From a virus, in the IMG/VR virus record IMGVR_UViG_3300025137_003799, positions 1 to 64,000 of that record: a DNA stretch of 64,000 bases; one strand, written 5' to 3'. Below, piece after piece: positions 41,752-64,000 of this stretch. A program made the position numbers and the translations under genes. How positions within the stretch are numbered: the stretch's first letter is position 1; every line of letters begins with the position of its first letter. The notes beneath the pieces are model-generated. The model did not search any database. It was given only the letters and a program-made list of their open reading frames with translations, and was not told the DNA's origin.

Positions 41752-42057
41752 ATGGCAATCATAAGAAAAGATAGATCATTCGACAAGATTTTTGATGAAG
41801 TAACACTAGAAAAAATACCAATGCATTATATATTAGAGGTTAGATTACACCTAGCTGATGGAACAAGTATAGATCTAGACAGAAGTAAGGTAGTACATCT
41901 TAGGGATCCTAGTGAAATTACTCAAATGGTAGGCAGAACAGATGTAACTGATGTAGCAATTAGTTTAGACTATGAGAATATTAAAAAGGATATCAGTAAT
42001 AAAGTTAAAGGTGTATTGGGTACGTTCTTTAAAGAAGATAAAGAGGAACCAAAATGA
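41752..42057 (+). CDS. hypothetical protein
   Basis: AATAAATA and AAGGAG upstream. Confidence 0.65.
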   Translation: MAIIRKDRSFDKIFDEVTLEKIPMHYILEVRLHLADGTSIDLDRSKVVHLRDPSEITQMVGRTDVTDVAISLDYENIKKDISNKVKGVLGTFFKEDKEEPK

Positions 42058-42737
42058 GTAATGAATATGTAAGTCCTCTAGCGACTCAGGAATATAAAGG
42101 TCCTGGAGACTACTTGGGTGCAATAAAAGAACACTTTGACAAACAGAATTATTCAAGAGAACGATGGGCTACGCATTCAGAAAGTAGCCATAATCTAATA
42201 CCTTATGTAAACAATTTAAAACCAAATCTAGTATTAGATATTGGTTGTGGCACAAATCCATACAAAGGAGAAATTGATAATCTTATTGGAATGGATCTTG
42301 GGAATTATCCTGAAGCTGATATTAACCTGAGTTGCAATAGAGTACATGAACTAGGTATTTTTCAGCCGGGTTGTGCTGATGTAGTAATGGCTCTAGGTTC
42401 AATTAACTTTGGATCATTTGAAGATATTAAAAGACAGATCAGTATATGTATTGATTGGTGTAAACCTGGCGGACAACTTATAATGAGATGTAGATTAGGA
42501 AAAGATAATCCAAGGAACAGAAATAATGATAGACATCTATTTAAAACGTTTAATCAACATCCTTGGAAATGGGATCAAATATATGAGATCACTGAACTCT
42601 GGAAAGACCGTGTAGAATTTTTACACGAGCCAATACCAGAAACAGCCGCTGGAGGCGATACTAATGGCGCTGGGCATGGTAAGCCTGATCCTAATAGAAA
42701 TATAGACTTAGCAGTCTGGTACTGGAGAAAACTATGA
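42054..42737 (+). CDS. class I SAM-dependent methyltransferase
   Basis: VLDIGCG, LIGMD, ALGSINF and KPGG. Confidence 0.8.
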   Translation: MSNEYVSPLATQEYKGPGDYLGAIKEHFDKQNYSRERWATHSESSHNLIPYVNNLKPNLVLDIGCGTNPYKGEIDNLIGMDLGNYPEADINLSCNRVHELGIFQPGCADVVMALGSINFGSFEDIKRQISICIDWCKPGGQLIMRCRLGKDNPRNRNNDRHLFKTFNQHPWKWDQIYEITELWKDRVEFLHEPIPETAAGGDTNGAGHGKPDPNRNIDLAVWYWRKL

Positions 42738-43882
42738 AAATAAATGATATACTTTATGAAGCATTACCGCCTGATGACAACCCTTTTGGAGACGACAAAA
42801 GATCTCAGAAAGATAAAGAAAAAGCGGCATATATGGCTAGTCTTACAAAGGTCGCAACGTGGATGGGTCCAAACAGTAAAACTTGGAATGATGCATCAAA
42901 CAAACTAGCAATTAAGATGTACAAACAAGGATACAATCCTAAAGAAATATGGGGAATAACACAAAACATAATGGGAACAGATGGTCATTGGCGCCAAGAA
43001 ATAGATGATAGTGGATCTCGTCTAATTCCAAATGCTAAAGGTGATACTATGGGAGATCAGATATATCACCCTGAACTTTATAAAGCATATCCAGGAATGA
43101 GAGACATACCAATTGATGCAAATTGGGACAACAGAGGATCTAGTGCTGGAGGAATGGTAAGTAATGGTAAAATTTATATTGGAAGTTACTACTCAGATGA
43201 TAAAACTAAAATTGAAGACAGACGAAGACTTGGAACAGGAAATCACGAATGGGGTCATGTAATTCAAAATAAATTTGAACCAAAATTTAGTGACGGAGAC
43301 AATCCAAGGACAGACTTAATTACAACAGTTGCTAGACAAAATAATATTACTCCTGATGCGGCATACAACGCCAAGGGCGGTGAGCATATGACTAGTGCTT
43401 CTGAGGTTAGACATGATATGTCAAAGTCGGAGAGAGCAGCTACATTTCCTGACTTAACTCAGGGTGCAGACTTTAATCCTGCAAAAAGAATTACTATAGA
43501 TAAAACTGATAAAGTTCCAGCATTTGACTATAACAATCCAAACAAAAATAGAAATGCAATTAAAGGTGTTAGTGGTCCGCTCAAGGATATAGGCCTGGGA
43601 ACGAAGCATGTAACGTTTGATAATCCACATCTTACTGACATATATCGAGATCCTAGCAAAGCTGATCTTGACAAAATTAGACGAGATTTAGCAGGAGGCA
43701 ATACCTCAGGCAGTGGAGGCTCAGGTGCAGGCGGAACCAAACCTATAAAGAGACCCACTGGAAATAAAAAAATAAAGTATGGTGGAAAAGGTAAAAACGG
43801 TCTAGGAACAATGACAAGTACGGGCCAAGTATTAGATTGGAAACCTAAATCAGACGCTCCACCAGGAGCAGACGGCAAATGA
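42734..43882 (+). CDS. LPD23-like + zincin (HExxH) domain protein, possibly virion-internal
   Basis: DGHWRQEIDDS, HPELYKAYP and HEWGH; Gly-rich tail. Confidence 0.6.
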   Translation: MKINDILYEALPPDDNPFGDDKRSQKDKEKAAYMASLTKVATWMGPNSKTWNDASNKLAIKMYKQGYNPKEIWGITQNIMGTDGHWRQEIDDSGSRLIPNAKGDTMGDQIYHPELYKAYPGMRDIPIDANWDNRGSSAGGMVSNGKIYIGSYYSDDKTKIEDRRRLGTGNHEWGHVIQNKFEPKFSDGDNPRTDLITTVARQNNITPDAAYNAKGGEHMTSASEVRHDMSKSERAATFPDLTQGADFNPAKRITIDKTDKVPAFDYNNPNKNRNAIKGVSGPLKDIGLGTKHVTFDNPHLTDIYRDPSKADLDKIRRDLAGGNTSGSGGSGAGGTKPIKRPTGNKKIKYGGKGKNGLGTMTSTGQVLDWKPKSDAPPGADGK

Positions 43883-44070
43883 AAATAGATGATATTCTTA
43901 AATTACCCAGTATAAAAATCGGAGACGAGATCATGGTGGGTAAATTTAAGAATCGTAAAGCAGTAGTTACTGGATTTACAAAAGATGAAAATAATCAGCC
44001 TGTTTTAAAAACAACCAAAGGCGACCAAAAACTATTTAAACCAAGGATAGTTAAACTAATGGATAAGTAA
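43879..44070 (+). CDS. small SH3/KOW-like hypothetical protein
   Basis: IKIGDEIMVGKFKN; MKIDDIL N-terminus. Confidence 0.6.
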   Translation: MKIDDILKLPSIKIGDEIMVGKFKNRKAVVTGFTKDENNQPVLKTTKGDQKLFKPRIVKLMDK

Positions 44071-44071
44071 A

Positions 44072-44317
44072 ATGAAATTAGACTTACATGGCTATAGAGT
44101 CCACGATGCCTGGCATAAATTTAAATTACATATACTAGAATGTTACCATTATAAATATAAGCACACAACAATTGTAACAGGTCACGGCAAAATCTCTGAG
44201 GAGATTAAAGACTGGTGTGTAGCCAGTCCTTACGTCAGACATGTAGAACGAATGTCCCCAAATACTGGAGCATATAAATTAACTTTCTGGAAACAGAAGA
44301 GCGGATACAATAAATGA
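44072..44317 (+). CDS. stand-alone Smr/MutS2-domain protein
   Basis: LDLHG, IVTGHG and NTGA. Confidence 0.8.
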   Translation: MKLDLHGYRVHDAWHKFKLHILECYHYKYKHTTIVTGHGKISEEIKDWCVASPYVRHVERMSPNTGAYKLTFWKQKSGYNK

Positions 44318-44580
44318 ATTTCTTTAAAAAAGCAAAACATCATCTAGCCGTAGAAACAGGCTGGGGTTACTGGTACCACTTGTGGCATAGTCTAAAAAAT
44401 AGTTGGACTCTACTTGTGATTGTTTTTAAAAGTACCGTACATGGATTTTGTCCATGGATATGGAAAGCAGATGCTCCACTTGGTGTTATTAAATTATACC
44501 ATCAGATTATGAAGATAGATCATATTAACAAACAAGATAAACTGAGGCAAAAACCAAAAAATGAACGATACCGAGATTAA
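44314..44580 (+). CDS. hypothetical protein (DUF6356-like)
   Basis: HL....GYWYHL...VHGFCPW. Confidence 0.5.
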   Translation: MNFFKKAKHHLAVETGWGYWYHLWHSLKNSWTLLVIVFKSTVHGFCPWIWKADAPLGVIKLYHQIMKIDHINKQDKLRQKPKNERYRD

Positions 44581-45139
44581 ACTTTTAACATTATTGAGTA
44601 GTTACGGTGACATAGTTGAACTTGATTGGAAGTTCGATACTGATGCTGTGATTAAAGAACTACAGCAGAGTTCCTGGATAGAAGGAACACATGGCAAACG
44701 TGCTATTAACTTAACTGGTCCAATAGAAGATATAGGACTGGAAGCAAAAGACAAGCATGATGCAGATCAACCAATTAATACAAACTGTACTCCGGGTATT
44801 CTCCCATTCTTTAACAAGTGGGAGAAGTTAGCACGTTGTAGAGCAGTTGAACTAAGTGCAGGTAGTTACTTTAAAATGCATCGAGATGCACATAAGATGC
44901 GTCCACAGATGCGTGTATTCATTCCACTTAACAAGGTAGATGTACATGAATGGAATTTTATATACAATACAGAGCGTGTACTGTTTAAGCCAGGCGTTCC
45001 TTATATACTAAACACTCGCAAACAACATGGCAGTTTTGCATTTGAAGGCGGAATATATCATGTGTTGATGAGTATCTACATAACTGAACACAATGTAAAA
45101 ACTGTTATGAATATGTTACCTAACTGCAAGGAATACTAA
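44561..45139 (+). CDS. Fe(II)/2OG oxygenase (Asp/Asn beta-hydroxylase-like)
   Basis: HRD...RVFIPL...NT..HG. Confidence 0.7.
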   Translation: MNDTEIKLLTLLSSYGDIVELDWKFDTDAVIKELQQSSWIEGTHGKRAINLTGPIEDIGLEAKDKHDADQPINTNCTPGILPFFNKWEKLARCRAVELSAGSYFKMHRDAHKMRPQMRVFIPLNKVDVHEWNFIYNTERVLFKPGVPYILNTRKQHGSFAFEGGIYHVLMSIYITEHNVKTVMNMLPNCKEY

Positions 45140-46320
45140 TGGATATTTGTATTGTAGGTGGCGGCACAGCAGGATGGATGACAGCAAGTTATCTAGCAAG
45201 TGTACTACCTGATAATATAACATTAATTGAAAGCCGTGATATACCAATTATTGGTGTAGGCGAGAGTACTGTTCCTAGTTTTACTGATTTTGTAAAAACT
45301 GTAGGGCTAACAGAACAAGATCTATTTAACATTGGCAGTATTAGAAAATATACAGCAAAACATTGTGACTGGCCACGAAAAGGTAAGGATTGGTTCCATC
45401 ATTTTATCTTTGATAAAACAGAAGAACAAGAACAACTACAGTGGTTAGAGAACTTGGAACTACCTGATAAGCATTGGAGACATAGTTATCATATTGATGC
45501 TACTAAGTTTAGTAGTCTATTACGTGAACGCTTTGTGGATAAGATAGACCATAATTATGATACTATTAAAAGAGTGGTATATACAGAATCCGGAATCACA
45601 AGACTTATAGGTGAAGAACGTGAATATACTGCTGACTTGTTTATAGATTGTAGTGGACTTAAACAAATACTTCTCAAAAACTTTACAAATTTAACAGAAT
45701 CAAACAACAGTCTAATAAACAATAAAGCATGGGCTGGACATGCCGATTACACAGACCAAGCAGGACCAGTCTATTATACTAGAACATTTGCCATGGATGC
45801 AGGATGGCAATGGAATATATGCTTACAAGACAGAGCAGGCTGTGGGTATGTTTTTAATGATCAACATATTGATAGTTATACAGCTAGAAAAGAATTTATA
45901 GATAAGTGTCCATTTAATCTAAGAAGAGACACACTTAAACTAATTGACTTTAAAAGCAAATGGAATACAAATCCATGGTGTAGTAATGTAGTAGCCATTG
46001 GACTTAGTGCAGGGTTCTTAGAGCCCCTAGAGAGTCAGAGCATATTCCTAACACAGATGCAGGTTCAAATGCTATGTAGACTTATAAACAAAAACAACAA
46101 TAAAAAATTATTCAATAAGTTTTGGAATATGATGATTAGACATATTGCTAAGTACCTGGAACTACATTATACTCTAAGTAGTAGAACAGATACATCATAC
46201 TGGAGAAGTTTCAATAAAACAGATACAGTTGTATATAAACATTCATATAGTCCTCTCTTTCATGAGTATGGGCATTCAGCAATAGCAGAGGCATATGGAG
46301 GAAAGTTGGTTAAACAATGA
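45139..46320 (+). CDS. flavin-dependent halogenase (tryptophan halogenase family)
   Basis: GGGTAGW, IGVGEST, FIDCSG, GWQWNI and GFLEPLES. Confidence 0.88.
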   Translation: MDICIVGGGTAGWMTASYLASVLPDNITLIESRDIPIIGVGESTVPSFTDFVKTVGLTEQDLFNIGSIRKYTAKHCDWPRKGKDWFHHFIFDKTEEQEQLQWLENLELPDKHWRHSYHIDATKFSSLLRERFVDKIDHNYDTIKRVVYTESGITRLIGEEREYTADLFIDCSGLKQILLKNFTNLTESNNSLINNKAWAGHADYTDQAGPVYYTRTFAMDAGWQWNICLQDRAGCGYVFNDQHIDSYTARKEFIDKCPFNLRRDTLKLIDFKSKWNTNPWCSNVVAIGLSAGFLEPLESQSIFLTQMQVQMLCRLINKNNNKKLFNKFWNMMIRHIAKYLELHYTLSSRTDTSYWRSFNKTDTVVYKHSYSPLFHEYGHSAIAEAYGGKLVKQ

Positions 46321-47270
46321 AAAAGAACACAGGAAAAAATTGGTACTCAGGTGATAGTGTAAAAGATCTTGTCGATAATGTAGATGCTGACAAGCAGATA
46401 AAAGTACAAGGCGACACTAACACAGATTCAAACTACGAAGATGAAATGTATAGTGCAGAACAAATGGAACGTCAGAAGGATATGGATAACATATTTAAAG
46501 TGGATGGTGTACCAAGTCGTTGGCAACACAATAAACTTAGAAGCACCTGGCATTTTGATCCATTCGAGGATCCTAACGAACAGAGCTTCGTAGTACCCTG
46601 TAGATTTGAAGGCGACTTTAGTGTTGCTATTAACTATGCTCTACAGGAAGCAAAAGAGATGACGATAGGAAACTATCGTAGTCGTAACGACAGTAAACAA
46701 GATAAAGATATGCATGATGGAGAAATCATTGATGCGGTCAACGCCAGTGGTAAAGATGATGTTAGTTGTATGTTCTATGACAAAGTAGTTCGCACAAAAT
46801 TTAATAAAGACACAGGCGAAAAGCAAGTATTAGAGAATCGTATACCTGAATATGATATACTTTTTAATGTTATTAAAGAGCTTGATGTAGATGTTCATCA
46901 GAGTCGTTTACACATACAAAGACTAAGCCAAGTAACACCCATACATATTGACAATCAGATGCGTTATGCTCGTCCAGGCTGGGATAAGGTATGGAGAGAA
47001 GCTGGTGCAGATAAGAATCCACTAAAGTTACGCAGGTTCCTTATACATCTACAAGACTGGACACAAGGACATGTATGGCAGTTTGGCAATACATATCATC
47101 AGGGGTATCAAGCAGGCACAGTAACAACTTATGACTGGTGTAACATGCCACATGGTACTGCAAACTTTAGTTTTATACCCAGAGTTACATTCCAAATCAC
47201 AGGGTTTGTGTCTGAAAAAACACAATGGATGATTGATAATCCAGATCCAAACAGAGTTATAAGTGTTTAA
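46317..47270 (+). CDS. Fe(II)/2OG-type oxygenase-like protein
   Basis: HID...PHGTAN...R.TFQITG. Confidence 0.6.
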   Translation: MKKNTGKNWYSGDSVKDLVDNVDADKQIKVQGDTNTDSNYEDEMYSAEQMERQKDMDNIFKVDGVPSRWQHNKLRSTWHFDPFEDPNEQSFVVPCRFEGDFSVAINYALQEAKEMTIGNYRSRNDSKQDKDMHDGEIIDAVNASGKDDVSCMFYDKVVRTKFNKDTGEKQVLENRIPEYDILFNVIKELDVDVHQSRLHIQRLSQVTPIHIDNQMRYARPGWDKVWREAGADKNPLKLRRFLIHLQDWTQGHVWQFGNTYHQGYQAGTVTTYDWCNMPHGTANFSFIPRVTFQITGFVSEKTQWMIDNPDPNRVISV

Positions 47271-47601
47271 AAGATTCCGCAAATGGTTCAATATAGACCA
47301 TGTTGTGGATATGACTGTCGATCTGTTCTTAATCCTATTTGATGTACTAACATCACCTATACTAATTGTTGTTAGATTGACACGTTGGATAATAGGCAAG
47401 TACTTGTTGGATGGGTTGAAAAACAAAATAAAAAGACTAATACATTGGACAAAGGGTAAACCAGCACTACTACAAATTGTAATCTGGACAACAACCCTAT
47501 GTGTATCACTATTAATTCTTACATTGATGTGGTTCTTTGGACAAGCAATTACAGAACTTGCTCAGGAAATGTGGGGCCATCAAGGATTAGATATAGAATG
47601 A
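47263..47601 (+). CDS. membrane protein
   Basis: two hydrophobic segments. Confidence 0.55.
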   Translation: MFKRFRKWFNIDHVVDMTVDLFLILFDVLTSPILIVVRLTRWIIGKYLLDGLKNKIKRLIHWTKGKPALLQIVIWTTTLCVSLLILTLMWFFGQAITELAQEMWGHQGLDIE

Positions 47602-48386
47602 ATCTAGAAGACTATACAGAATACAAGCATAAGAATTTTCCAGCTACTAAAAAGGACGCTAGAGTGCCAGGTGAAACACTATTGTGGTATGGCAAGGACC
47701 AGCAGGAAAAGGATAAGACTCCGGAAGTCATGACGCTACACTTAGAACAGTCAAGGGATTGGACTGATGTAGATATTAGTTATGCTTGGAATAGCCTGGG
47801 TTATCGTGGCCCAGAGCCAGACTATACAGCAAACAAGAAGATACTACTAGCAGGCGGTTCAATGTTAATGGGCGTTGGTTTACCTATTGAAGAAACACTA
47901 CCAGTAGTACTAGCCAAACATTTTAATGCAGACTATCTAAACTTGAGTGACTATGATAGCCTAACAGAAATAACTGCACCTTTGGAGCAATTAGGTGTTG
48001 ACTATGATCCTGACTATGTTATAATAGGGGATACAAGATTTGTAGTTGAAAATAATTGGCTTATGGCATTCATAAAACAGAAACTAAAACTACATGGCGT
48101 TGACATTCGCAGAGAAGATTTACAATTTTTCCAACAAGCGTTTGACAATACAAACCATAGTGTACTCACAGTATACAATGGATTCATACAAAATTTATTT
48201 CCTAAAGCAAAGGTATTATTCCTTATTGCTCCTAGGAAAAACTTTAACTTTGATACAGGGTTTGAGAATCAACTAACTATAAGCAAAGACTATATGGTTG
48301 ATTTAAGCAGAGACAATGCACACCCTGGACCAAATTCAATAATAACAATAGCAAAAGAAATAATTAGGAGACTAGAAGATGGTTGA
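47598..48386 (+). CDS. SGNH/GDSL-like protein
   Basis: NSLGYRG, GGSM..GVG and RDNAHPG. Confidence 0.55.
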   Translation: MNLEDYTEYKHKNFPATKKDARVPGETLLWYGKDQQEKDKTPEVMTLHLEQSRDWTDVDISYAWNSLGYRGPEPDYTANKKILLAGGSMLMGVGLPIEETLPVVLAKHFNADYLNLSDYDSLTEITAPLEQLGVDYDPDYVIIGDTRFVVENNWLMAFIKQKLKLHGVDIRREDLQFFQQAFDNTNHSVLTVYNGFIQNLFPKAKVLFLIAPRKNFNFDTGFENQLTISKDYMVDLSRDNAHPGPNSIITIAKEIIRRLEDG

Positions 48387-51940: not shown

Positions 51941-51943
51941 ATA
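51936..51943 (+). promoter_or_regulatory. late promoter TATAAATA
   Basis: exact box upstream of the radical SAM operon. Confidence 0.65.
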
Positions 51944-56291: not shown

Positions 56292-57553
56292 GTAAGGGAG
56301 GATTTTGTGCCCTACCTTTTGTACAGTACTCAACTTATAACGGTGGACGTTATAGGCTATGTTGTATGGCGGCAGAACCTGAAGTAACAGTTAACCAAGA
56401 AGAACTAGGCATAGCAGGAACATGGAACCACGACTATATTAAAGATGTTCGCAAACGTTTAACAAACGATGAATGGTTGCCTGAATGTGGTGAATGTTTA
56501 CGGCTAGAACGTAATGGAATAGTAAGCTCACGTCAATGGGAAAATGAACAGTGGGCAGATGTAATTGACGAAGTGGTGGCTGACGCTTCCGTTAACGATT
56601 GGGAGGTTGAACAACCTTTACAATTTGATTTTAGGCTTGGCAATTTATGTAATCTACAATGCCAGATGTGTAATAAAGAAGCATCACATCTAGTAAGTGT
56701 GGAACGTGGCAAAATGGTTAAAGAAGGACTGGGGGCCAACCACCCTGATTGGCACGGCAATATTGCAGAAAAGAAGGAAGCCCTTCTTCAACCTGGAATA
56801 GACTGGACGAGTTTTGAGGATATGGTAGTGAAGGCTCGTAAAATTAAAATGATCGGTGGAGAGCCTACAGTAAGTCCTGATATGTTTAAGCTCTTAGATA
56901 AGGCCGTTGATTCCGGACACGCATCACATATAGAACTTAGCTTCTATACTAATATGACTAACATGCAGGATAAGTGGTTAGAACAGCTAGGTAAGTTTGA
57001 GAAGGTGATAATAAACTGTTCCTTGGAGGGCATGGAGGACATGAATGACTACCTACGTCCGCCTTCCAAGTGGACTAGTGTATGGAAAAACTTTGACAAG
57101 TTAGTCAAGTATTCAAATACAAAAGCAGGTAAGAATATTAAAGTTAGAGTGACAACAGTTAATCAGATAACAAACGCATTACATATTGTTCCATTCTGGC
57201 GTATGATGCACAATTATCAGATGGAACATGATAGAGGTATAGCAATGAGTACCAATCAACTTATTGAACCAAACTACTATAGTATGCAGTACGCACCACA
57301 ATGGTTGCGTGATGAACAAAGCAAACAGGTAGAAGAATTTTTAACAGAGATTGATAACTCACCACACTTCACAGACTATGAAGAGCCTCTTAGAGAGATG
57401 ATTGCCTTTTCAAATGATAGTGATCATGTATACAATCCAAACATTATAAAACAATATGTTAGGGTTACTGAAAGTTATGATATATTTAGAGGACATGATG
57501 TAATGAAGGTTGCTCCGGAGTTTAAGAGGCTTAAAGATGAAATTCGGATTTAA
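56288..57553 (+). CDS. radical SAM protein with N-terminal twitch-like Cys cluster
   Basis: CALPF, LCC, CGEC, CNLQCQMC and GGEP. Confidence 0.9.
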   Translation: MSKGGFCALPFVQYSTYNGGRYRLCCMAAEPEVTVNQEELGIAGTWNHDYIKDVRKRLTNDEWLPECGECLRLERNGIVSSRQWENEQWADVIDEVVADASVNDWEVEQPLQFDFRLGNLCNLQCQMCNKEASHLVSVERGKMVKEGLGANHPDWHGNIAEKKEALLQPGIDWTSFEDMVVKARKIKMIGGEPTVSPDMFKLLDKAVDSGHASHIELSFYTNMTNMQDKWLEQLGKFEKVIINCSLEGMEDMNDYLRPPSKWTSVWKNFDKLVKYSNTKAGKNIKVRVTTVNQITNALHIVPFWRMMHNYQMEHDRGIAMSTNQLIEPNYYSMQYAPQWLRDEQSKQVEEFLTEIDNSPHFTDYEEPLREMIAFSNDSDHVYNPNIIKQYVRVTESYDIFRGHDVMKVAPEFKRLKDEIRI

Positions 57554-58730
57554 AAGTTATAACAGTTGGGATCCACTTAAAAAAGTTCTAGTGGGCAGTA
57601 CATTTAAGACAGACTTTTTTGCAGATCTTCCTGACAAAAAAGTTGCTGATACATTATCTAGAGTTAATGAAGAAACACATGAGGACTTAGAACAACTTGT
57701 TACTATACTCAAAGGCGAAGGTGTAGAGACATATAGAATGCCTGATACACTCCTTACTCCCGGAGGACAGACAGCAACTAGTGTAAATCAATTTGTTGAG
57801 GTAGGTCATCAAATTCCCAAACCTTTACATACACCACGTGATGATTTTTTCGTATTAGGTGAAACATTTATATATGGAAAGCCTTTTGTAAGAATGAATG
57901 ACGTAAACTGGCAAATGCCCTGGACAGGGTGTGAGGATTATGTCCAAGTATTTTTTGATAAGGATAGTCCTCTATGTCTAGGAGATAAGAACTCAGAAGT
58001 TCTTAAGTCTTTTGACGGAGCATGTATTATGCGAGCCGGTAGAGATATTACAATGGATGTAAATTCAAGTGCAGGCAAAGTATTTCAACAGGATTGGTTA
58101 CCCAAGTTTAACAATATAAACAATACAAACTTCAGAGCTCATACGGTTGGCATGGGAAGACATACAGACGGAGTTATGAATCTATTACGACCTGGACTCA
58201 TTATATCTGCACAATATATACAAAATTATCATCTAACATATCCTGATTGGGACGTTTTTTATGTACCAAAGCCAATGGATAATCCCTATGTGGATGCATT
58301 TAAACAAATGAAACGTGACAGACGAGAACGTGCAAAGAATTATTGGATCCCTACAGAAGAAGGTAATGATGCACTACATCAGTTTATTGACCTATGGTTC
58401 AAGGATGGTGTGGGTAGTGTATTTGAAACAAACTTTGATGTTAATATCCTAAGTCTAGATCAGGATACTATTATTACATGTGGTAAGAATAGTGATGTGG
58501 AAAAGAGATTATGGAATGATTACGGTATAAAAACAATTGTATCACCACTACGTCACAGATGGTTTTGGGACGGTGGCATACATTGTGTTACTAGTGACTT
58601 GTATCGTGAAGGAACATGTGAAGACTATTGGCCTACAAGAGGCGATACATTCTTAAATTTTGAGGAAGAAGAATTAATTAATAACGGAGCAAAGGTCCGA
58701 GACGAATGGCGAGATATTAACTTTACATAA
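57537..58730 (+). CDS. amidinotransferase (glycine/inosamine-phosphate amidinotransferase family)
   Basis: NSWDPLKKVLVG, PRD, FDGA, HTDG, FDVN and GGIHC. Confidence 0.85.
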   Translation: MKFGFKSYNSWDPLKKVLVGSTFKTDFFADLPDKKVADTLSRVNEETHEDLEQLVTILKGEGVETYRMPDTLLTPGGQTATSVNQFVEVGHQIPKPLHTPRDDFFVLGETFIYGKPFVRMNDVNWQMPWTGCEDYVQVFFDKDSPLCLGDKNSEVLKSFDGACIMRAGRDITMDVNSSAGKVFQQDWLPKFNNINNTNFRAHTVGMGRHTDGVMNLLRPGLIISAQYIQNYHLTYPDWDVFYVPKPMDNPYVDAFKQMKRDRRERAKNYWIPTEEGNDALHQFIDLWFKDGVGSVFETNFDVNILSLDQDTIITCGKNSDVEKRLWNDYGIKTIVSPLRHRWFWDGGIHCVTSDLYREGTCEDYWPTRGDTFLNFEEEELINNGAKVRDEWRDINFT

Positions 58731-59661
58731 TATCTTGATAATTCATGTGAAGATTATTTTTATAGTACTGATACATAATATCTTCAGCTTCAGTTAGTAC
58801 AGGATCAGTACGTTTACCCCATACAACTTCTGCAGTCCATTTACCATGTGCTTTGTCTTGAATAGTATATGTACCTAAGTCTGGAAATACTCCACTATCA
58901 ATAACCGTTACTGATTCATGATGCTTACTTGCATATTTTAGGATCTTGCTGGGATCCTGTCGCCAATCTGTGTGATATATGTTTTTATAGCCATGAGCAA
59001 CAAGCCACGCTTCTGTTAGATTTCCCATACGCAAACCCAACTTTGCGTAATGACTGTCATCATGTTTGTGATTATGTATAAGCCAAGCTGGTTGATTTTC
59101 ATCATAATGTGCTACAGTCTTATGTCTACGTTTACCCACACGGAATAGTATACTACGTTTAAGTGTTGATAAAGGTTCTACAATATGCCAACTAAAAGGA
59201 TCAGCACATATAAAATAAGCACTATTAACTCTGTTGGGTATTTGTAATACAGGATTACATTGTCTATCTAAAATTTGCACACCCTGATCACTGTCATCTA
59301 AATATACTTGACTAGTAATTAACCAACGAAAGTTTTTTAGATCATTATGTGTCTCTAAATGACTACCGGGTTCATCCATATGAAAGTTAGTATAGTGATG
59401 ATCATGTGAATAGTCCGGTGAACCCAGGAACTCCCATTTCAAAGTGTCCAGCATTTCATACTTAACAAAACTTAGGAAGTCTATGTCTTGTACAGGTGCT
59501 GAATAATTACCCCATAAACTGCTTTCATGCTCACTTGCTTGTGGATTTGCACAATGCTCGCGAATATATTGTTCAGGGTAGTTGTCATAATACCTTTGCA
59601 GGTAATTGACATGCATGAATCTATTCGTCAGGCTGTACTTGTATGGTTTCTTGTAGTGCAA
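58723..59661 (-). CDS. Fe(II)/2OG oxygenase-like protein
   Basis: LETHND...QVYL...SWH.V...RS; start possibly 59616. Confidence 0.6.
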   Translation of the reverse strand: MHYKKPYKYSLTNRFMHVNYLQRYYDNYPEQYIREHCANPQASEHESSLWGNYSAPVQDIDFLSFVKYEMLDTLKWEFLGSPDYSHDHHYTNFHMDEPGSHLETHNDLKNFRWLITSQVYLDDSDQGVQILDRQCNPVLQIPNRVNSAYFICADPFSWHIVEPLSTLKRSILFRVGKRRHKTVAHYDENQPAWLIHNHKHDDSHYAKLGLRMGNLTEAWLVAHGYKNIYHTDWRQDPSKILKYASKHHESVTVIDSGVFPDLGTYTIQDKAHGKWTAEVVWGKRTDPVLTEAEDIMYQYYKNNLHMNYQDIM

Positions 59662-60511
59662 CTATTCTATCCTTAAGGCATAATTCCGGTTTTAGTAAAC
59701 TTTCTCTTACAATGTCTGCTTCATAACATTGTAGTTTTGATCCAAATACTACTTGGTGCGTGATCCATTGTGCGTTAAAGAACCATATATCACCCGGATC
59801 GAATGTAATATAATGTAGAGGATGATGGAACTGATCCCATCCTTTATCATTCCAAACGCATTTGTCTCTGATACCAGTTATAAATTTTTTTACATCTACT
59901 TCTGTTAGGCCTGCCAGTTCACATTCCTCATAATATTCTTGCCATAACTGTTCAACTGTGGGACCAAATGTTAAGATTCTAGGACGCTGATAATCCAAGT
60001 TTAGGAACATACGAATTTGTTGTTCATCACCAGTATGCTCTTCATCTAATTCATCTAGATGTAGTTTGTTTTCAACTAACATATTATAGCGGTGGCTCAG
60101 CATCTCATCTGTTGTTTTATAGCGAGGAAACAATTGATCAAATAACATTGACCATCCAACTGTTGACATTTTATGTCTGTTGTGAAACTCATCAATTTGT
60201 TTTTTATCCCAACCACGTTCTTCTTCAAGTCTAGTTCTATTCTTAATATGGCTGTTATACCAGGGCATGATCCATTTGTTTCCTTCGATTACCCAGTCTT
60301 CTAACTGATCGTAGTACTTGTAATCTACTCCGGATACTTTTAGACCTTTAATAACTACTGGCCATCCACTTTCAAAGGCAGTATATAATTCTTCACTGTC
60401 AGCAATTTCGCTTATGTCTTCGATATTAAATATCTTGACTTTGAAAGCCTCTCCTGCTATAGTATCTAAAGCAACTCTAGTCATCGTTTTCTCCATGTTT
60501 TTTGGTAGCAT
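59621..60511 (-). CDS. Kdo-hydroxylase (KdoO)-like Fe(II)/2OG dioxygenase
   Basis: LHLD, IRMFLNLD, FDPGDIWF and HQVVFG; start probably 60496 or 60484. Confidence 0.55.
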   Translation of the reverse strand: MLPKNMEKTMTRVALDTIAGEAFKVKIFNIEDISEIADSEELYTAFESGWPVVIKGLKVSGVDYKYYDQLEDWVIEGNKWIMPWYNSHIKNRTRLEEERGWDKKQIDEFHNRHKMSTVGWSMLFDQLFPRYKTTDEMLSHRYNMLVENKLHLDELDEEHTGDEQQIRMFLNLDYQRPRILTFGPTVEQLWQEYYEECELAGLTEVDVKKFITGIRDKCVWNDKGWDQFHHPLHYITFDPGDIWFFNAQWITHQVVFGSKLQCYEADIVRESLLKPELCLKDRIVALQETIQVQPDE

Positions 60512-60522
60512 AAATATTTATG
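60509..60522. promoter_or_regulatory. bidirectional late promoter palindrome CATAAATATTTATG
   Basis: perfect 14-bp palindrome between divergent genes. Confidence 0.6.
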
Positions 60523-60565
60523 TTAATACAAAACTCCCATCTTGTCAACCGGAAAGGTAATTTTT

Positions 60566-61636
60566 ATGAATCCTATTAATGCTTGGAGTGAGTTCCAACC
60601 ACTGAAACGTGTGGTTTTAGGATCTCCGTTCCCACCAGAAACATTTGATTGGCACAAGGACGAACAAACTCGCAGAGTTATGCGACAGATCTTTGAAGAG
60701 ACAGCCGAGGACATTAATGTGCTACAGGATATTCTAGAGGCTAGAGGCGTAGAAGTTGTACGTCCTAAGAATATATTTACAATCACTGGTGAAGAACAAA
60801 TACTATTACCCTGGATGCATTGTGGCTTTCCTAACCATCCATTAATGCCACGTGATACTCTAATGCCATATGGCAATACAATCTTCGAGTGTTACACGGG
60901 TAGCGACAATAGGTATTTTGAGAACTTAGCATATTACGAACATTGTAGTCAATGGTTTCGTGACGGTGCTGATTGGGTTAGTATGCCAGGAGCTCTAGTA
61001 GAAAGTGGTAAGAAGTATGACTACTTTGTTGCTAATAACCGAATACTTTTTCATGCGGCTAATATGATTAAGTGTGGACGTCACGTTTTGTTTAGCCAAC
61101 CCTATGAGGGAGACAATAAACGTGGTAAGGGAACTGAACTGGGCCGTGAATGGATTCAACGTGAAATAAAGTTGCGATATCCAGATACACAATTTTTGGA
61201 CATTCCAGTCGGAGGACACATTGATGGTAAAATAGCTTTACTAAAACCTGGCGTACTAATGACCTGGAATAAAAACTGGGTACCAGACGAAATGAAAAAC
61301 TGGCACATCATTGAAGTAGATGATGATCATGACATGCCAGAGGATTTTGTTAATACTCGTAAGCAAAGATTCTATACAGACTATGTAGAAAAGTGGCTAA
61401 CGCATTGGGTAGGGTATGCAGATGAAAGTGTGTTTGACGTAAATTGTTTGACTTTAGACGAAAAACATGTTATAATGACTGGTAAGAACTCTGTCGTAGA
61501 ACGACAGTTAGAGAAGTTAGGTATAACAGTAATTCACTGGCGTTTCCGCCACCAATACTTCTGGGACGGTGGAATACATTGCTTAACAAGTGATGTACGA
61601 CGTGAAGGAGATTGTGAGGATTATATAAATGGATGA
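60566..61636 (+). CDS. amidinotransferase, second copy
   Basis: EFQPLKRVVLG, MPRD, HIDG, FDVN and GGIHC. Confidence 0.85.
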   Translation: MNPINAWSEFQPLKRVVLGSPFPPETFDWHKDEQTRRVMRQIFEETAEDINVLQDILEARGVEVVRPKNIFTITGEEQILLPWMHCGFPNHPLMPRDTLMPYGNTIFECYTGSDNRYFENLAYYEHCSQWFRDGADWVSMPGALVESGKKYDYFVANNRILFHAANMIKCGRHVLFSQPYEGDNKRGKGTELGREWIQREIKLRYPDTQFLDIPVGGHIDGKIALLKPGVLMTWNKNWVPDEMKNWHIIEVDDDHDMPEDFVNTRKQRFYTDYVEKWLTHWVGYADESVFDVNCLTLDEKHVIMTGKNSVVERQLEKLGITVIHWRFRHQYFWDGGIHCLTSDVRREGDCEDYING

Positions 61637-61734: not shown

Positions 61735-61962
61735 ATGGGTGAAGTATTAAACTTCAAACCTAAAGAAATAGTATATATACTAAACTTTGTGAGCCCACAT
61801 CCGATACGCATGAATAAGGATGGAAGTGAAAGAATTAGACTAACACTTAATCGCAAAGACTTTACTACTGGAATCGGACAAGCATGGGTTCCAGCAATTA
61901 ATAAACGTATGGCAAAAGAGAAACTGTCGGACATGATTGATGTCTTGGAGTGGCTTGATTGA
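61735..61962 (+). CDS. hypothetical protein
   Basis: AAGGA RBS; stop overlaps the next TTG start. Confidence 0.55.
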   Translation: MGEVLNFKPKEIVYILNFVSPHPIRMNKDGSERIRLTLNRKDFTTGIGQAWVPAINKRMAKEKLSDMIDVLEWLD

Positions 61963-63209
61963 CATATAGAAATAAGTTTCTAGATAATACAGCACTACCA
62001 ACTTGTTTAGCACCCTGGCACACACTAACGGTGAAGTGGGGAGGTAACGTTGTACCTGATATTATATATAAAAATAAGTTGGGTAATATAAACAAGCAAA
62101 CTCTACAAGAGATACTTGAAGGTGATGCTGCTCGCGAGCTACGAACTGCACATCGAAATAGACAGATTCCAGATGTATGCAAAGGGTGTGCATCAAAAGA
62201 AAAGTCCGGCAGATCAAGACGTATGTTCTTCTGGGATAAACTTGATTGGGACGTTAGAATCCGCAGTAAGAATTTACAAGTGGATGATGTGCCTGATATT
62301 CGTTATCTAGACTTTACAGTTTCAAATAAATGTAATTTAAAATGTATACATTGTAATCCTTTTGTGTCAACAGGCTGGACTAAAGATGGTAAAAAATTAA
62401 ATAAAGAAATGCCTGAGTATTGGGAGAAAACACAGATAGGTTTTCATGGAGCTGAAACAACCTTCATGGATAATTTGTTTGCTAATCCTGAATACTTCCG
62501 TAACCTACAATGGGTTGCACTACGTGGCGGTGAGCCACTTTATGATGAACGTTGTATAGAGATCCTACAATGGTTTGTTGATGCTGGTCTAAGTCATAAA
62601 ATTATGCTGGACATATCAACTAACGCAACAGTATTCAATGATAACTTCCGTATATTGTTTGCACAGTTTAAACATGTTGAACTAATGGTTAGTGTGGAAG
62701 CAACAGATGAATTATATAGTATAATTCGAGGTGACACACATACATGGACGGATCTATTACAAAACATAGAACAATTTTATGAGATAGAAAACTTGGAAAT
62801 GGTTTTTGCTGTCACAGTTATGATTACCAATGTATTTGATTTACCAAATGTTTGGAAGTGGTTCAATAAATACCATGCAACTCGAGCAAGTATAAGTATG
62901 AGTAACGTTGTGGTTAACCCTACATATCTAAATATAGCAAACATGCCAGACAATTTAAAACAACAAGCACTGGAGAAGATAAAAGAAATACCCAGTGAAG
63001 CTATCTGGCCTGAAGGCAGTTACCATGCAGAAGAATTTGAATATCAAACTGGCATTGATGATATTCGTAAAGGACTACAAAGTGCTACAGCAGACGACAA
63101 ACAATGGCAATACTTCCTAAAGTATACAGATGATTTAGATCGTTTAAGAAATACTGATACATTAAAATTAATAAAGGAGATACAAGATGTCAGACAAAAC
63201 AGTTACTAA
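61959..63209 (+). CDS. radical SAM protein with N-terminal twitch-like region
   Basis: CLAPW, CKGC, CNLKCIHC and RGGEP. Confidence 0.88.
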   Translation: MTYRNKFLDNTALPTCLAPWHTLTVKWGGNVVPDIIYKNKLGNINKQTLQEILEGDAARELRTAHRNRQIPDVCKGCASKEKSGRSRRMFFWDKLDWDVRIRSKNLQVDDVPDIRYLDFTVSNKCNLKCIHCNPFVSTGWTKDGKKLNKEMPEYWEKTQIGFHGAETTFMDNLFANPEYFRNLQWVALRGGEPLYDERCIEILQWFVDAGLSHKIMLDISTNATVFNDNFRILFAQFKHVELMVSVEATDELYSIIRGDTHTWTDLLQNIEQFYEIENLEMVFAVTVMITNVFDLPNVWKWFNKYHATRASISMSNVVVNPTYLNIANMPDNLKQQALEKIKEIPSEAIWPEGSYHAEEFEYQTGIDDIRKGLQSATADDKQWQYFLKYTDDLDRLRNTDTLKLIKEIQDVRQNSY

Positions 63210-63381
63210 TCGTATGGCAGAATTAATGCAACCAATAGATCAACAAATTATGATGTGTGATGATAGAAATGATACACTAATGTTAGCATGTGCTATGTTG
63301 GAAAGATGCAAAACGATTCTAGATTACTCAATCGGTAAAGAAGGCCGTAGAGATATTATATCAGGAGCAAACGAAAGGTGA
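63187..63381 (+). CDS. hypothetical protein
   Basis: AAGGAG RBS. Confidence 0.6.
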   Translation: MSDKTVTNRMAELMQPIDQQIMMCDDRNDTLMLACAMLERCKTILDYSIGKEGRRDIISGANER

Positions 63382-64000
63382 ATCCAGACTTCCATAATCA
63401 TGGCAATAGTATATGGAACCAACCATTTATTGACCATTTAAATGAGAACTTTTGGCCCACAATAGATCCGGCACACTTGCCACAAGAAGCTGATAAATTT
63501 TTAGAACTATATCCAGAATGGATTTCATCAAGTAAATTAAATCAGTTCCGTGGAATGGAAGGCTTTGAACATCGGTTTGTGAGTCTGGGAGCAACACAGG
63601 GTTTGGACTGGTGGCATTACTGGTGCATGGCAAACGGATATCGTCTGCGTATGTACAGAGGAGAATATCCATATAATAGAGATGTATTATTGGAAGGACA
63701 ATGGACACATGATCGCTTTATTGGTGATCGTCCACTAGCAAAGGGAGATGCTGTTATAGTTAGTCTGCCCTTTAGTGGTTCAGGTCGCAAGCCTACTGAG
63801 TGGAAAAATTTAATTGCTACATGCAATGAGAATAATATTCCTGTATTTGTTGATTGTGCTTGGTTCGGAACATGTACAGATATTGAAGTTAAACTAAATC
63901 AAGATTGTATTAAAATGGTTGCATTTTCAACAACCAAAGGGTTGAGTTGTGGTAACTGGCGTGCAGGCATAGTCTTTAGTAGATTAAATGAAGGTAGTTT
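63378..64000 (+). CDS. PLP-dependent fold-type I enzyme (aminotransferase-like), runs off the window end
   Basis: manual translation from GTG 63378 gives GATQG, VFVDCAW and FSTTKGLS..WRAG; absent from the ORF track because there is no stop. Confidence 0.75.
   Translation, partial: MNPDFHNHGNSIWNQPFIDHLNENFWPTIDPAHLPQEADKFLELYPEWISSSKLNQFRGMEGFEHRFVSLGATQGLDWWHYWCMANGYRLRMYRGEYPYNRDVLLEGQWTHDRFIGDRPLAKGDAVIVSLPFSGSGRKPTEWKNLIATCNENNIPVFVDCAWFGTCTDIEVKLNQDCIKMVAFSTTKGLSCGNWRAGIVFSRLNEGS

Follow-up and report, generated by a model that had tools for sequence, protein, structure and literature searches.

The virus record IMGVR_UViG_3300025137_003799 carries, at positions 42054-64000, a dense run of tailoring-enzyme genes, five of them for radical S-adenosylmethionine (SAM) enzymes; the analysis covered the first 64,000 nucleotides of the record, hereafter called the window, together with the remainder of its contig. 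We propose that this gene island encodes a sugar-editing pathway, and we leave its acceptor open. This reading, which rests on sequence comparison and fold prediction, has in our view an even chance of being right. It fits best because a putative GT-A-fold transferase is the constant partner of the core radical SAM gene, because the bacterial counterparts of the island lie in a glycosyltransferase-rich context, and because a KdoO-like hydroxylase, sulfotransferase-fold proteins and a carbamoyltransferase are encoded along with it. A UDP-glucose dehydrogenase in the window, sugar-type accessory genes in related islands and an enzyme logic like that of aminoglycoside tailoring point in the same direction.

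A preliminary description of the window, made from its letters, had assigned this chemistry to a macromolecule made late in infection, most plausibly virion surface proteins or their glycans, curlin fibres or host lipopolysaccharide (LPS). A glycan target gains support from the GT-A partner, from the glycosyltransferases found in 6 of 11 cellular loci and from the KdoO-like, sulfotransferase-fold and carbamoyltransferase genes. Nothing, however, singles out virion proteins, curli fibres or LPS as the acceptor.

Organization of the island

The 22 kb between 42054 and 64000 are the first part of a roughly 33-kb island (42.0-75.1 kb of the contig) made of about 35 tightly packed genes. At the 27 gene junctions of this stretch we counted 19 overlaps, six gaps of at most 50 nt and two larger gaps, which bears out the tight coupling noted in the preliminary description. 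Its list of enzymes was likewise largely recovered: a methyltransferase, a flavin halogenase, two sulfotransferase-like proteins, five radical SAM enzymes, a nucleosidase, two amidinotransferases and a pyridoxal phosphate (PLP) enzyme (Table 1). The stretch also holds genes that do not encode enzymes, for an LPD23-domain protein, an Smr protein, a DUF6356 protein and a pentapeptide-repeat protein. Beyond the window, up to about 75.1 kb, the island continues with five more paralogs of the radical SAM family described below, two large unknown paralogs, an Asp/Arg hydroxylase, an SDR-like protein and a GNAT. Pfam families of non-ribosomal peptide synthetases (NRPS), polyketide synthases (PKS) and transporters were absent from every scanned open reading frame (ORF) of the window and the contig, in agreement with the earlier impression of a chemistry without its own scaffold synthase.

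The radical SAM paralogs and the nucleosidase

The radical SAM genes of the island belong to the NCBIfam family NF033640 (N_Twi_rSAM, twitch domain-containing radical SAM protein), a subfamily model to which no reaction has been assigned and whose curated cut-off is 170 bits. Five members above this cut-off lie in the 22-kb stretch (247.6-409.2 bits), six in the window and 11 on the contig (170.1-409.2 bits). The 11 paralogs are mutually just 20-32% identical; the cysteines of the CxxxCxxC motif (C150, C154 and C157) and three others (C12, C93 and C96) are invariant in all of them, and C30 in 10. Pfam places the SPASM domain of the island proteins at residues ~10-95, ahead of the Radical_SAM domain. 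The Cys-Cys pair conserved in the N-terminal domain of 10 of the 11 paralogs is missing from the protein encoded at 61959-63209, whose TTG start overlaps a 75-aa ORF.

In viral contigs we found 476 relatives of the gene at 51986 (genes are named here by a start coordinate); the 80 best of these, with 54-85% identity, define the loci to which the counts out of 80 refer. Orthologs of the radical SAM gene 56288 with at least 40% identity were found in 27 of them. Related phage records hold 18, 10, 4 and 2 NF033640 genes above the cut-off and the 14 control genomes none. In the record with 18 (G002, which holds locus L033), one of these genes (83617-84864) has an in-frame TGA. Literature searches on NF033640 or its name, on Bdellovibrio radical SAM enzymes and on jumbo-phage radical SAM glycans returned no functional study and no paper naming NF033640.

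The nucleosidase encoded at 53388 is placed in its superfamily by Pfam and falls below the cut-off of every NCBIfam nucleosidase equivalog (best score 87.9 bits, cut-off 129). It shows weak matches to futalosine hydrolase (2e-10) and HpnG (6e-9). In the MqnE/MqnB and HpnH/HpnG pairs, a radical SAM enzyme and a nucleosidase act together, radical adenosylation being followed by base removal. The weak similarity to these nucleosidases hints that the island enzyme may process adenosylated intermediates.

Conserved core and variable cassettes

The gene order in close relatives is AAA ATPase, DUF2201, 41051 and 41731, then directly 50040, 51236, the radical SAM gene 51986, the nucleosidase and the radical SAM gene 56288, followed by (57510), 58723, 59621, 60542, a small radical SAM gene, the radical SAM gene 61959, the PLP enzyme and a further radical SAM gene, 64261. 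The block 42054-49062 is missing from this order and its genes have orthologs at 40% identity or more in just 1-4 of the 80 loci; we therefore regard it as an insertion. The island thus appears to be built in two layers. Judged from these comparisons, the conserved core consists of the radical SAM gene 51986, the nucleosidase, the radical SAM gene 56288, the KdoO-like protein, the amidinotransferase at 60566, the radical SAM gene 61959 and the PLP enzyme, and also takes in other putative iron- and 2-oxoglutarate-dependent (Fe/2OG) oxygenases and a predicted sulfotransferase-fold protein. To the cassette layer would belong the 42-49 kb block, with its halogenase, oxygenase, methyltransferase and sulfotransferase genes, along with insertions of one gene, for instance the amidinotransferase gene 57537-58730.

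This single-gene insertion can be seen directly. Contigs from two independent marine studies (runs X3 and X4), 92-96% identical to the window, span the island but join position 57540 to position 58730 with 13 other letters between them, and this exact skip means that cassette turnover goes down to single genes. Cassette turnover between relatives, which the preliminary description had proposed as a check, was therefore observed both as a block insertion and as a single-gene insertion or deletion (indel). The same wild relatives also skip 61643-61756, in the gap ahead of the 75-aa ORF, and contigs of run X10 cover parts of the island at 99% identity.

Among the recurrent accessory clusters of related islands (n=95) are a phosphomannomutase, a UDP-glucose dehydrogenase and an alginate lyase; a peptide-maturation family is not among them. 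In the close relative L003, a truncated gene resembling class-II aminoacyl-tRNA synthetases (15809-16678; tRNA-synt_2, E 3.5e-15, 290 aa) lies between the amidinotransferase gene and the KdoO-like gene.

A detached module with a GT-A-fold transferase

Four genes at 16.7-20 kb of the window form a detached part of the core. In more distant phages, the ortholog of the radical SAM gene 51986 directly follows homologs of 16700, 17391, 18624 and 18887, whereas here the two groups are 32 kb apart. The structural model of the 16700 protein is matched by Foldseek, with a probability of 0.96-1.0, to RmlT, WrtF, SunS, GtrB and ppGalNAc-T, and aligns with B4GALNT1 at a Z score of 11.6. Of the two GT-A transferases announced for the window, this one (16700-17404) holds; the second was not identified. 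Profiles of the 16700 and 17391 families gave nothing useful against solved structures.

A protein of 74-87 aa, of the 18624 family, is encoded directly upstream of the radical SAM gene 18887 in 23 of the 80 loci. Conservation in this family extends over the whole length, as in a folded protein. A complex prediction for the two proteins scored 0.00, which gives no verdict and was used neither for nor against an interaction.

Counterparts in Bdellovibrionota

Prokaryotes were scanned with one genome per species, the query being the ortholog alignment of the 51986 protein since the alignment of the 11 paralogs is too diverged. We found 76 prokaryote genome loci with a relative of this protein, 58 of them in Bdellovibrionota (a count of record titles), including complete chromosomes and a cultured Bdellovibrio isolate. 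The Bdellovibrionota orthologs of 51986 show 55-65% identity. Their loci have a four-gene core, consisting of a 16700-like gene, a 17391-like gene, an 18887-like radical SAM gene and the 51986 ortholog (55-63% identity), and add further NF033640 paralogs and a 63378-like PLP enzyme, both strands being used as in ordinary bacterial loci. In the cultured isolate, seven NF033640 genes score above the cut-off, and six of these lie within about 37 kb.

The cellular context was examined in 11 loci, with 98 unmatched neighbouring ORFs. Classical Pfam glycosyltransferases lie within 8 kb of the 51986 ortholog in six of the 11 (GT2 in five, GT1 in one), and the locus of the Bdellovibrio isolate holds five GT2 ORFs. 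A PMT_2/ArnT-like transferase and an SIS sugar isomerase also occur in the cellular loci. In the Bdellovibrio isolate (L121), a 686-aa protein encoded at 15260-17320, ~6 kb from the radical SAM ortholog, carries an endosialidase-chaperone (Peptidase_S74) domain, which is typical of fibre and spike proteins.

The core of a GT-A-fold transferase, a methyltransferase-like protein and radical SAM enzymes is common almost only to T4-like jumbo phages and Bdellovibrionota, two kinds of predators of Gram-negative cells. A speculative and rather unlikely extension of the sugar-editing reading is that in both it would build an undescribed, radically edited, guanidinylated and sulfated glycan on structures that contact the prey, namely tail fibres and bdellovibrio fibre proteins such as the S74-chaperone protein of L121. 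Part of this chemistry may consist of radical adenosylation followed by base removal, pairing a radical SAM enzyme with the nucleosidase and giving carbon-extended "higher" sugars.

Predicted functions of the other enzymes

Two proteins of the island, encoded at 48379 and 50040, are sulfotransferase-like and have no Pfam match. For the core member 50040, an AlphaFold model (mean predicted confidence, pLDDT, 87.7) was compared with 48,161 representative chains. Sulfotransferases took all of the first six places, with Z scores of 9.0-10.5, root-mean-square deviations of 3.2-4.3 and 162-189 aligned residues; they include TPST1 (10.5), TPST2 (10.0), the olefin-synthase sulfotransferase (9.3), Stf9 and Stf1 (both 9.0), while kinases reached at most 8.4, a modest margin, and Foldseek alone was weak. 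The family has an invariant GxPGSxW loop at the position of the 5'-phosphosulfate loop. The 50040 protein is therefore predicted to have the sulfotransferase variant of the P-loop fold, and the fold evidence for 48379 is this model of its paralog.

The preliminary description had counted about six Fe/2OG oxygenases. All six candidates have a conserved HxD...H triad, and the support beyond this motif varies. The paralogs 44561 and 50687 are linked (hhalign probability 96.8) to the PF05118-positive family of the contig gene 69669, and the paralogs 46317 and 51236 (85.8) to the AspH-like, PF05118-positive family. For 59621 there is a KdoO-like signal, and for 58723 the motif alone. KdoO is the Fe/2OG 3-hydroxylase of 3-deoxy-D-manno-octulosonic acid (Kdo) in the LPS inner core (PF11004); 59621 resembles it by its triad and by an ESM Atlas protein-language-model score of 0.96, with 218 of 256 features common with PF11004 clusters, and two of 19 homologs match PF11004 at E 0.0023 or weaker. 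A profile of the 59621 family found nothing in the PDB, and profiles of the 46317/51236 and 50040 families gave nothing useful against solved structures. Wide database searches with 59621 and with 46317/51236 returned unlabelled relatives alone; the same was true of 58723, for which no PDB or Pfam link was found.

Both amidinotransferases are, by their family profile, genuine family members. The profile matches the solved members SxtG (3.4e-30), HsvA (4.7e-29), AGAT (1.4e-26) and StrB1 (1.6e-23) over several stretches in both halves of the protein, and the catalytic-site residues H338 and C339 of the GGxHC motif, which aligns to FHC of SxtG, are invariant in 15 of 15 sequences. The PLP enzyme is a marginal member of Aminotran_1_2 (20.8 bits, cut-off 19.7), with a weak match to the aminotransferase 4rkc (E 0.017) and the invariant residues D159...S184-x-x-K187.

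Within the variable block, the methyltransferase-like protein 42054 has a weak Pfam match of its own (E 0.026), and its homologs match Methyltransf_23 at 4.4e-9. The halogenase 45139 is 28-33% identical to cyanophage proteins, including those of Syn9 and Syn10, and matches 68 phage records; its translation contains GGGTAGW and GWQWNI, which we take to be the GxGxxG and WxWxI motifs of flavin-dependent halogenases. As for the SGNH-like protein announced at 47598, its GGS and DxxH motifs are conserved across five sequences and a Pfam match is absent.

Table 1. Features of the window discussed in the text.
Feature	Position	Strand	Evidence and remarks
NodU/CmcH-type carbamoyltransferase	74..1603	+	Carbam_trans_C 2e-53, Carbam_trans_N 3e-35, phrog_1601 3e-93
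GT-A-fold transferase (putative)	16700..17404	+	DxD motif, invariant D57-x-D59; model pLDDT 91
Methyltransferase-like protein (lead only)	17391..18365	+	detached part of core
Small helical protein	18624..18887	+	detached part of core
Radical SAM protein	18887..19978	+	detached part of core
SAM synthetase (MetK)	30315..31463	+	Pfam S-AdoMet_synt N, M and C domains, E 7e-31 to 4e-56
Isolated sixth N-terminal-twitch radical SAM protein of the window	35290..36495	+	NF033640 229 bits
Class-I SAM methyltransferase-like protein	42054..42737	+	first gene of variable block; orthologs at 40%+ identity in 3/80 loci
LPD23-domain protein, 63-aa ORF, Smr domain protein, DUF6356 protein	42734..44580	+	LPD23 2.9e-7, Smr 1.6e-10, DUF6356 5e-6; 4-nt overlaps
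Asp/Arg-hydroxylase-like Fe/2OG oxygenase (putative), paralog of 50687	44561..45139	+	H107-x-D109...H156
Flavin-dependent halogenase, marine-phage "tryptophan halogenase" type	45139..46320	+	Trp_halogenase (PF04820) E 3.6e-82, 277 bits vs 21; phrog_2928 2e-93
Orphan-family Fe/2OG-like protein, paralog of 51236	46317..47270	+	invariant HxD...H; none of 120 listed relatives Pfam-labelled
SGNH-like-motif protein	47598..48386	+	conserved GGS...DxxH motifs alone
Sulfotransferase-fold protein (predicted), paralog of 50040	48379..49062	+	25% identical to 50040-50690; common GxPGSxW loop
Pentapeptide-repeat protein	49001..50050	+	Pentapeptide_4 1e-24; in 1/80 loci
Sulfotransferase-fold protein (predicted), conserved core	50040..50690	+	true start 50040, not 49890 (homolog alignment); in 31/80 loci
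Asp/Arg-hydroxylase-like Fe/2OG oxygenase (putative)	50687..51220	+	34% identical to 44561; weak OlsC match E 0.002
Orphan-family Fe/2OG-like protein, conserved core	51236..51940	+	orthologs in 24/80 loci
Late-promoter-like box TATAAATA	51936..51943	+	50 nt upstream of the ATG of radical SAM gene 51986
N-terminal-twitch radical SAM protein	51986..53395	+	NF033640 409 bits; most widely conserved gene of the island
PNP_UDP_1-family nucleosidase (methylthioadenosine/S-adenosylhomocysteine/5'-deoxyadenosine type)	53388..53939	+	Pfam E 1.6e-16, 60.9 bits vs 25.1; in 27/80 loci
N-terminal-twitch radical SAM protein	53942..55165	+	NF033640 256 bits
N-terminal-twitch radical SAM protein	55149..56291	+	NF033640 248 bits
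N-terminal-twitch radical SAM protein	56288..57553	+	NF033640 298 bits
Amidinotransferase, paralog 1	57537..58730	+	single-gene cassette; absent from near-identical wild relatives
Orphan protein, possible Fe/2OG oxygenase	58723..59616	-	HxD...H...R motif alone
Kdo-hydroxylase-like Fe/2OG protein, conserved core	59621..60484	-	invariant H142-x-D144...H243
Late-promoter-like box CATAAATA	60509..60516	+	divergent gap ahead of 60566
Amidinotransferase, paralog 2, conserved core	60566..61636	+	orthologs at 40%+ identity in 18/80 loci
N-terminal-twitch radical SAM protein	61959..63209	+	NF033640 250.5 bits; orthologs at 40%+ identity in 13/80 loci
Fold-type-I PLP enzyme (aminotransferase-like)	63378..64000	+	cut by window end; full gene 63378-64280 of the contig

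Late-type boxes ahead of the core operons

The preliminary description had placed late-promoter boxes before the operons. The box TATAAATA, which we take to be the T4-type late-promoter consensus, occurs seven times in the window, where 10.65 copies are expected, and so is not enriched. Four of its six plus-strand copies, however, lie within 50 nt upstream of gene starts, namely those of CsgF, 16700 (box at 16664), 34700 and the radical SAM gene 51986. Moreover, the box recurs at orthologs: NATAAATA was found within 120 nt upstream of the 51986 orthologs in 16 of 55 distinct upstream regions, of the 60542 orthologs (amidinotransferase 60566) in 10 of 12, of the 51236 orthologs in six of 17 and of the 56288 orthologs in two of 19, and within the same distance in none of ten other gene families, the background of the exact box being 0.005 per 120 nt. 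Late-type boxes are present at the operon starts 51986 (TATAAATA) and 60566 (CATAAATA), and the block beginning at 42054 has no such box ahead of it. Late-type boxes before two operon starts are suggestive of transcription of the core operons late in infection. Between 44 and 64 kb, scans for sigma-70 promoters (73 found, 80 expected) and for terminators (13 found, 9.1 expected) stayed at the level of shuffled sequence.

Sugar editing weighed against other readings

Under the sugar-editing reading, the substrates of the enzymes would be sugar units, whether activated by a nucleotide or attached already. For the radical SAM enzymes we envisage C-H chemistry that needs no oxygen, for example oxidation to keto-sugars, epimerisation, deoxygenation or C-methylation; a keto group would be converted into an amine by the PLP enzyme, the amidinotransferases would turn amines into guanidino groups and the Fe/2OG enzymes would hydroxylate. 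Sulfo-, carbamoyl- and methyltransferases would cap the product, and the GT-A-fold enzyme would move it onto its acceptor. The SAM synthetase of the phage would supply SAM, while the nucleosidase would clear inhibitory 5'-deoxyadenosine or trim an adenosylated intermediate. Aminocyclitols and sugars are substrates of twitch-type radical SAM enzymes such as BtrN, and StrB1 and TobZ are amidino- and carbamoyltransferases of aminoglycoside pathways. The rapid turnover of cassettes suggests that the product is under diversifying selection, as surface structures are.

Several observations weigh against sugar editing. Classical Pfam glycosyltransferases were not found in the window, nor were a flippase, a polymerase or a lipid-carrier transferase, and the model of 16700 fits the nucleotidyltransferases MobA and IspD nearly as well (Z about 10). 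The KdoO link of 59621 stays under the Pfam threshold, a Pfam search with the protein itself giving no match up to E 5. The nearest solved sequence to the radical SAM protein 51986, and its sole solved match, is SkfB (E 0.0018), and the weak secondary NCBIfam matches of the radical SAM proteins are mostly peptide maturases (PapB, mycofactocin, SkfB and others). The solved relatives of the amidinotransferases act on small free amines, and the usual substrates of flavin halogenases and Asp/Arg-hydroxylase-type enzymes are aromatic compounds, peptides or lipids. Just three of the 95 recurrent accessory clusters are overtly sugar-related, and 62 have no Pfam match. The genes for Wzx, WbaP-type and Wzy proteins (PF01943, PF02397 and PF04932) lie in or beside the radical SAM island in none of five Bdellovibrionota genomes; all are far off. 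On the phage contig, the neighbours of the island are nucleotide-metabolism genes (by Pfam and PHROG profiles, FolE, a QueE-like radical SAM protein, a phosphoribosyltransferase, thymidine kinase, dCMP deaminase and FEN) and not fibre genes: the flanking sequence, where the preliminary description had suggested looking for tail-fibre genes, has none detected on the 79.7-kb contig. In the relative G001, more than 110 kb separate the island from the capsid gene, which speaks against the idea of a virion or LPS target.

Alternatively, the product might be a free, diffusible guanidino small molecule, aminoglycoside-, aminocyclitol- or nucleoside-like and possibly sulfated, carbamoylated or halogenated, that acts during infection, for instance on competitors, grazers or host physiology, with no macromolecule being decorated; we see this as a real but small chance. 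Aminoglycoside and aminocyclitol tailoring (BtrN, StrB1, TobZ) indeed uses the same enzyme classes as the island, that is, twitch radical SAM and PLP enzymes, two amidinotransferases, a carbamoyltransferase, an SDR-like protein and a GNAT, and the amidinotransferases here belong to the SxtG/HsvA/AGAT/StrB1 family with its small-amine substrates. Moreover, the structural matches of 50040 include a Cpz8-type sulfotransferase from the pathway of a nucleoside antibiotic, membrane-anchoring Pfam families were undetected in all of the enzymes, and acceptor-specific or export genes were not found. However, the sequence link to aminoglycoside tailoring is the amidinotransferase family membership alone and the twitch domain sits at the opposite end of the protein, while cyclitol synthase, NRPS, PKS, transporter, export and self-resistance genes were not found in the island. 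The core radical SAM gene has a GT-A-fold transferase as its most constant partner and is flanked in bacteria by glycosyltransferases, and a phage would have little time to gain from a secreted metabolite. We give less credence to a pathway that modifies amino-acid residues, be it of a peptide that is made on the ribosome and modified after translation (RiPP) or, as protein hypermodification, of a virion protein. SPASM/twitch radical SAM enzymes are typical peptide maturases, in line with the PapB, mycofactocin and SkfB matches listed above; the halogenase and the Asp/Arg beta-hydroxylase-type oxygenases would suit peptide substrates, the best structural match of the 50040 family is the protein sulfotransferase TPST, and the conserved 74-87-aa protein is encoded directly upstream of radical SAM gene 18887. 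That small protein is, however, conserved over its full length like a folded protein, and among the ORFs of at least 25 aa in the gaps no short family with a variable core was found. The small ORFs 43879-44070, 61735-61962 and 63187-63381, considered as RiPP precursors, form no repeat family and have no typical core. RiPP recognition element (RRE)/PqqD, leader peptidase, YcaO, lanthipeptide and export families were found neither in the window nor in the 95 accessory clusters, all peptide-maturase matches are far under their curated cut-offs while those to NF033640 are far above, and the bacterial context is one of glycosyltransferases.

The nucleotide-metabolism genes around the island raise another explanation, namely that it hypermodifies phage DNA, by glycosylation or decoration of bases or through an unusual nucleotide precursor, and so evades host nucleases. 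ThyX adjoins the island in 22 of the 80 loci, and hypervariability would suit an arms race with restriction systems. The available part of one study reports phage GT-A enzymes that place diverse glycans on 5-hydroxymethylcytosine in DNA (bioRxiv 2023.12.21.572611), and phage CP220, which has an analogous radical SAM/amidinotransferase block, is described as having fully 7-deazaguanine-modified DNA; the same text, as far as available, credits that modification to deazaguanine genes and not to the radical SAM block (bioRxiv 2023.04.13.536721). DNA hypermodification nevertheless seems improbable to us. The TGT/DpdA family was found in none of five relatives (two of them rated complete) nor on the contig itself, bearing in mind that phage DpdA may be too diverged for the Pfam model; QueC and QueD were not found on this contig; a ThyA-family gene is present in neither of two complete relatives and was found in two partial ones; and Bdellovibrionota have the same core beside envelope-type glycosyltransferases. 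The ThyA-family gene of the relatives was considered as a dCMP hydroxymethylase and rejected, the checked copy, in G001, being an ordinary thymidylate synthase (E 3e-87 to E. coli ThyA, PFNIASY kept). A Tet_JBP search gave no match in any genome, controls included. It might also be that there is no single pathway and that the island is a hypervariable "parking lot" where auxiliary genes and small cassettes with no relation to one another have gathered into a collage, a reading to which we assign a similarly low probability. The 42-49 kb block is missing from most close relatives and includes the LPD23, Smr, DUF6356 and pentapeptide-repeat genes, and single genes come and go. From the portions available, halogenase, 2-oxoglutarate oxygenase and carbamoyltransferase genes are sporadic in T4-like cyanophages (PMC3037559), and the Campylobacter-phage module is called interchangeable and probably non-essential (Timms et al., PMC2853527). 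The core, however, keeps its order and its near-translational coupling across many phages, its four-gene version recurs in a bacterial phylum, its old paralogs are individually conserved and not decaying, and the co-encoded nucleosidase and SAM synthetase suit heavy use of radical SAM enzymes. A collage would therefore account for the variable block, but not for the core with its conservation and coupling.

Comparison with known systems

An island of this kind is already in print. In the Campylobacter phages CP220 and CPt10, according to the accessible text, each genome has 11-12 radical SAM genes, and an interchangeable module combines five radical SAM genes with a putative amidinotransferase (Timms et al. 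2010, PMC2853527). These phages share with the present case a T4-like phage background and a packed radical SAM/amidinotransferase block that, in the same text, is swapped wholesale between sister phages. By its annotation, the CP220 block includes two genes with the nucleotide-diphospho-sugar-transferase fold and one for a membrane PAP2 phosphatase, stands behind baseplate genes, and lists no halogenase, sulfotransferase-fold, KdoO-like or PLP genes. Its amidinotransferase is just 22-24% identical to those of the island, and its radical SAM genes are shorter with an N-terminal radical SAM domain, and thus are not N-twitch proteins of the NF033640 type. The host of CP220 is a gut epsilonproteobacterium, not a marine bacterium.

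Marine T4-like phages offer other partial likenesses. For pelagimyophages, the part of the report available describes a curli CsgF/CsgG operon, a host-recognition cluster and hypervariable "radical SAM cassettes" that differ between close relatives (PMC7029224). Sporadic genes of cyanomyophages include, in the corresponding part of their report, a prnA-type halogenase, several 2OG-Fe(II) oxygenases and a carbamoyltransferase (PMC3037559). Between them, the two texts, so far as available, also list LPS-type genes; they give no function for these islands' genes and contain no radical SAM family analysis, no Bdellovibrionota link and no amidinotransferase, sulfotransferase-fold or KdoO-like genes. 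The genomes of these phages measure about 150-200 kb, whereas those of the present phage and its relatives are of about 360 kb or more. Cyanophage Syn9 has two halogenases and three 2-oxoglutarate oxygenases directly behind its tail-fibre genes. The idea of a virion or LPS target is compatible with our results, and is favoured, by analogy, by the position of such blocks behind fibre genes in Syn9 and behind baseplate genes in CP220.

Phage DNA-glycosylation clusters, in which GT-A or GT-B enzymes stand beside 5mYOX or ThyA-like enzymes, have in common with the island a GT-A-fold transferase with sugar-modifying neighbours on metavirome contigs; the available text on them does not mention radical SAM enzymes (bioRxiv 2023.12.21.572611). 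They differ in that a 5mYOX, hydroxymethylase or DpdA partner was undetected here, the Tet_JBP search having matched nothing even in controls.

New here are the two-layer anatomy with its observed single-gene indel, the fold-level sulfotransferase-like and GT-A partners, the genuine amidinotransferases, the KdoO-like lead and the absence of Wzx/Wzy genes from the bacterial islands. If the sugar-editing reading is true, large marine phages spend about a tenth of their genome on oxygen-independent radical sugar chemistry carried out by NF033640, and the 11 old paralogs would probably each catalyse a different step, making the island a compact library of new carbohydrate-editing enzymes that also holds orphan Fe/2OG-like and sulfotransferase-fold families. 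A variable glycan layer would then play a part in oceanic phage-host recognition or superinfection exclusion, and a shared gene module would link phages to predatory bacteria. Cultured systems make the question testable: the Bdellovibrio isolate with its seven family members, CP220 with its analogous block and Syn9 with its halogenase/oxygenase cassette.

Source phage and genome setting

The record is a single virus contig of 79,710 bp, of which the window is the first 64 kb; the window has a G+C content of ~0.37 and carries nearly all of its genes on the plus strand. CheckV rates the record 22% complete, from which a genome of roughly 360 kb follows. The source is, as far as these data tell, an uncultured marine T4-like jumbo phage. 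One close relative is represented by a 192-kb contig, rated 52% complete, on which a Gp23-type major capsid protein is encoded (E 5e-84), and two more distant relatives with the radical SAM gene 51986, of 457 and 364 kb, are rated complete. We considered a pelagimyophage of about 150 kb as the source and rejected it; the curli operon would fit, but the CheckV-based size estimates do not. Megablast of the 22-kb stretch against isolate phages gave no match.

Elsewhere in the window, the carbamoyltransferase of the preliminary description was found as announced, and it adjoins the core in some relatives (e.g., loci L006 and L132). Additional radical SAM genes were also present, at 10086, 18887, 29345 and 35290. 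The "APS-kinase-like" gene at 2879-3292, by contrast, turned out to encode a generic P-loop kinase (AAA_33, E 2e-7). MetK is the likely cofactor supply for the many SAM-consuming enzymes. FolE (24526-25218), the phosphoribosyltransferase (25658-26212) and the QueE-like radical SAM protein (29345-30241; phrog_2076, 7e-48) suggest, by their families, part of a 7-deazapurine pathway; QueC, QueD and TGT/DpdA were not found on the 79.7-kb contig. The UDP-glucose/GDP-mannose dehydrogenase gene seems truncated or split, with the N-terminal and central domains at 28125-28883 followed by a 149-aa ORF (to 29325) without a Pfam match.

A curli-type operon at 3326-8102 of the window encodes CsgF (3351-3815, with TATAAATA 25 nt upstream), CsgG (3817-4908), an FecR-like protein and two paralogous curlin-repeat-like proteins (5291-5995 and 7059-8102); it agrees with the operon that the available part of the pelagimyophage report describes (PMC7029224). 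An unusual phage cargo lies at 11234-13276, a 680-aa protein in which a CHASE2 sensor is fused to an adenylate/guanylate cyclase domain. At 37686-40365 lie the genes for a MoxR/CobS-like AAA ATPase and for a DUF2201 metallopeptidase/VWA protein; close relatives keep both directly upstream of the island, in 25 and 39 of the 80 loci, respectively. Three paralogs of 342-487 aa without family assignment are encoded on the contig, two within 66778-69669 between radical SAM genes and one at 1558-2586 of the window. Just past the island, among minus-strand genes, lies the gene for the alpha subunit of a Rieske-type ring-hydroxylating oxygenase (contig 78339-79406, minus strand).

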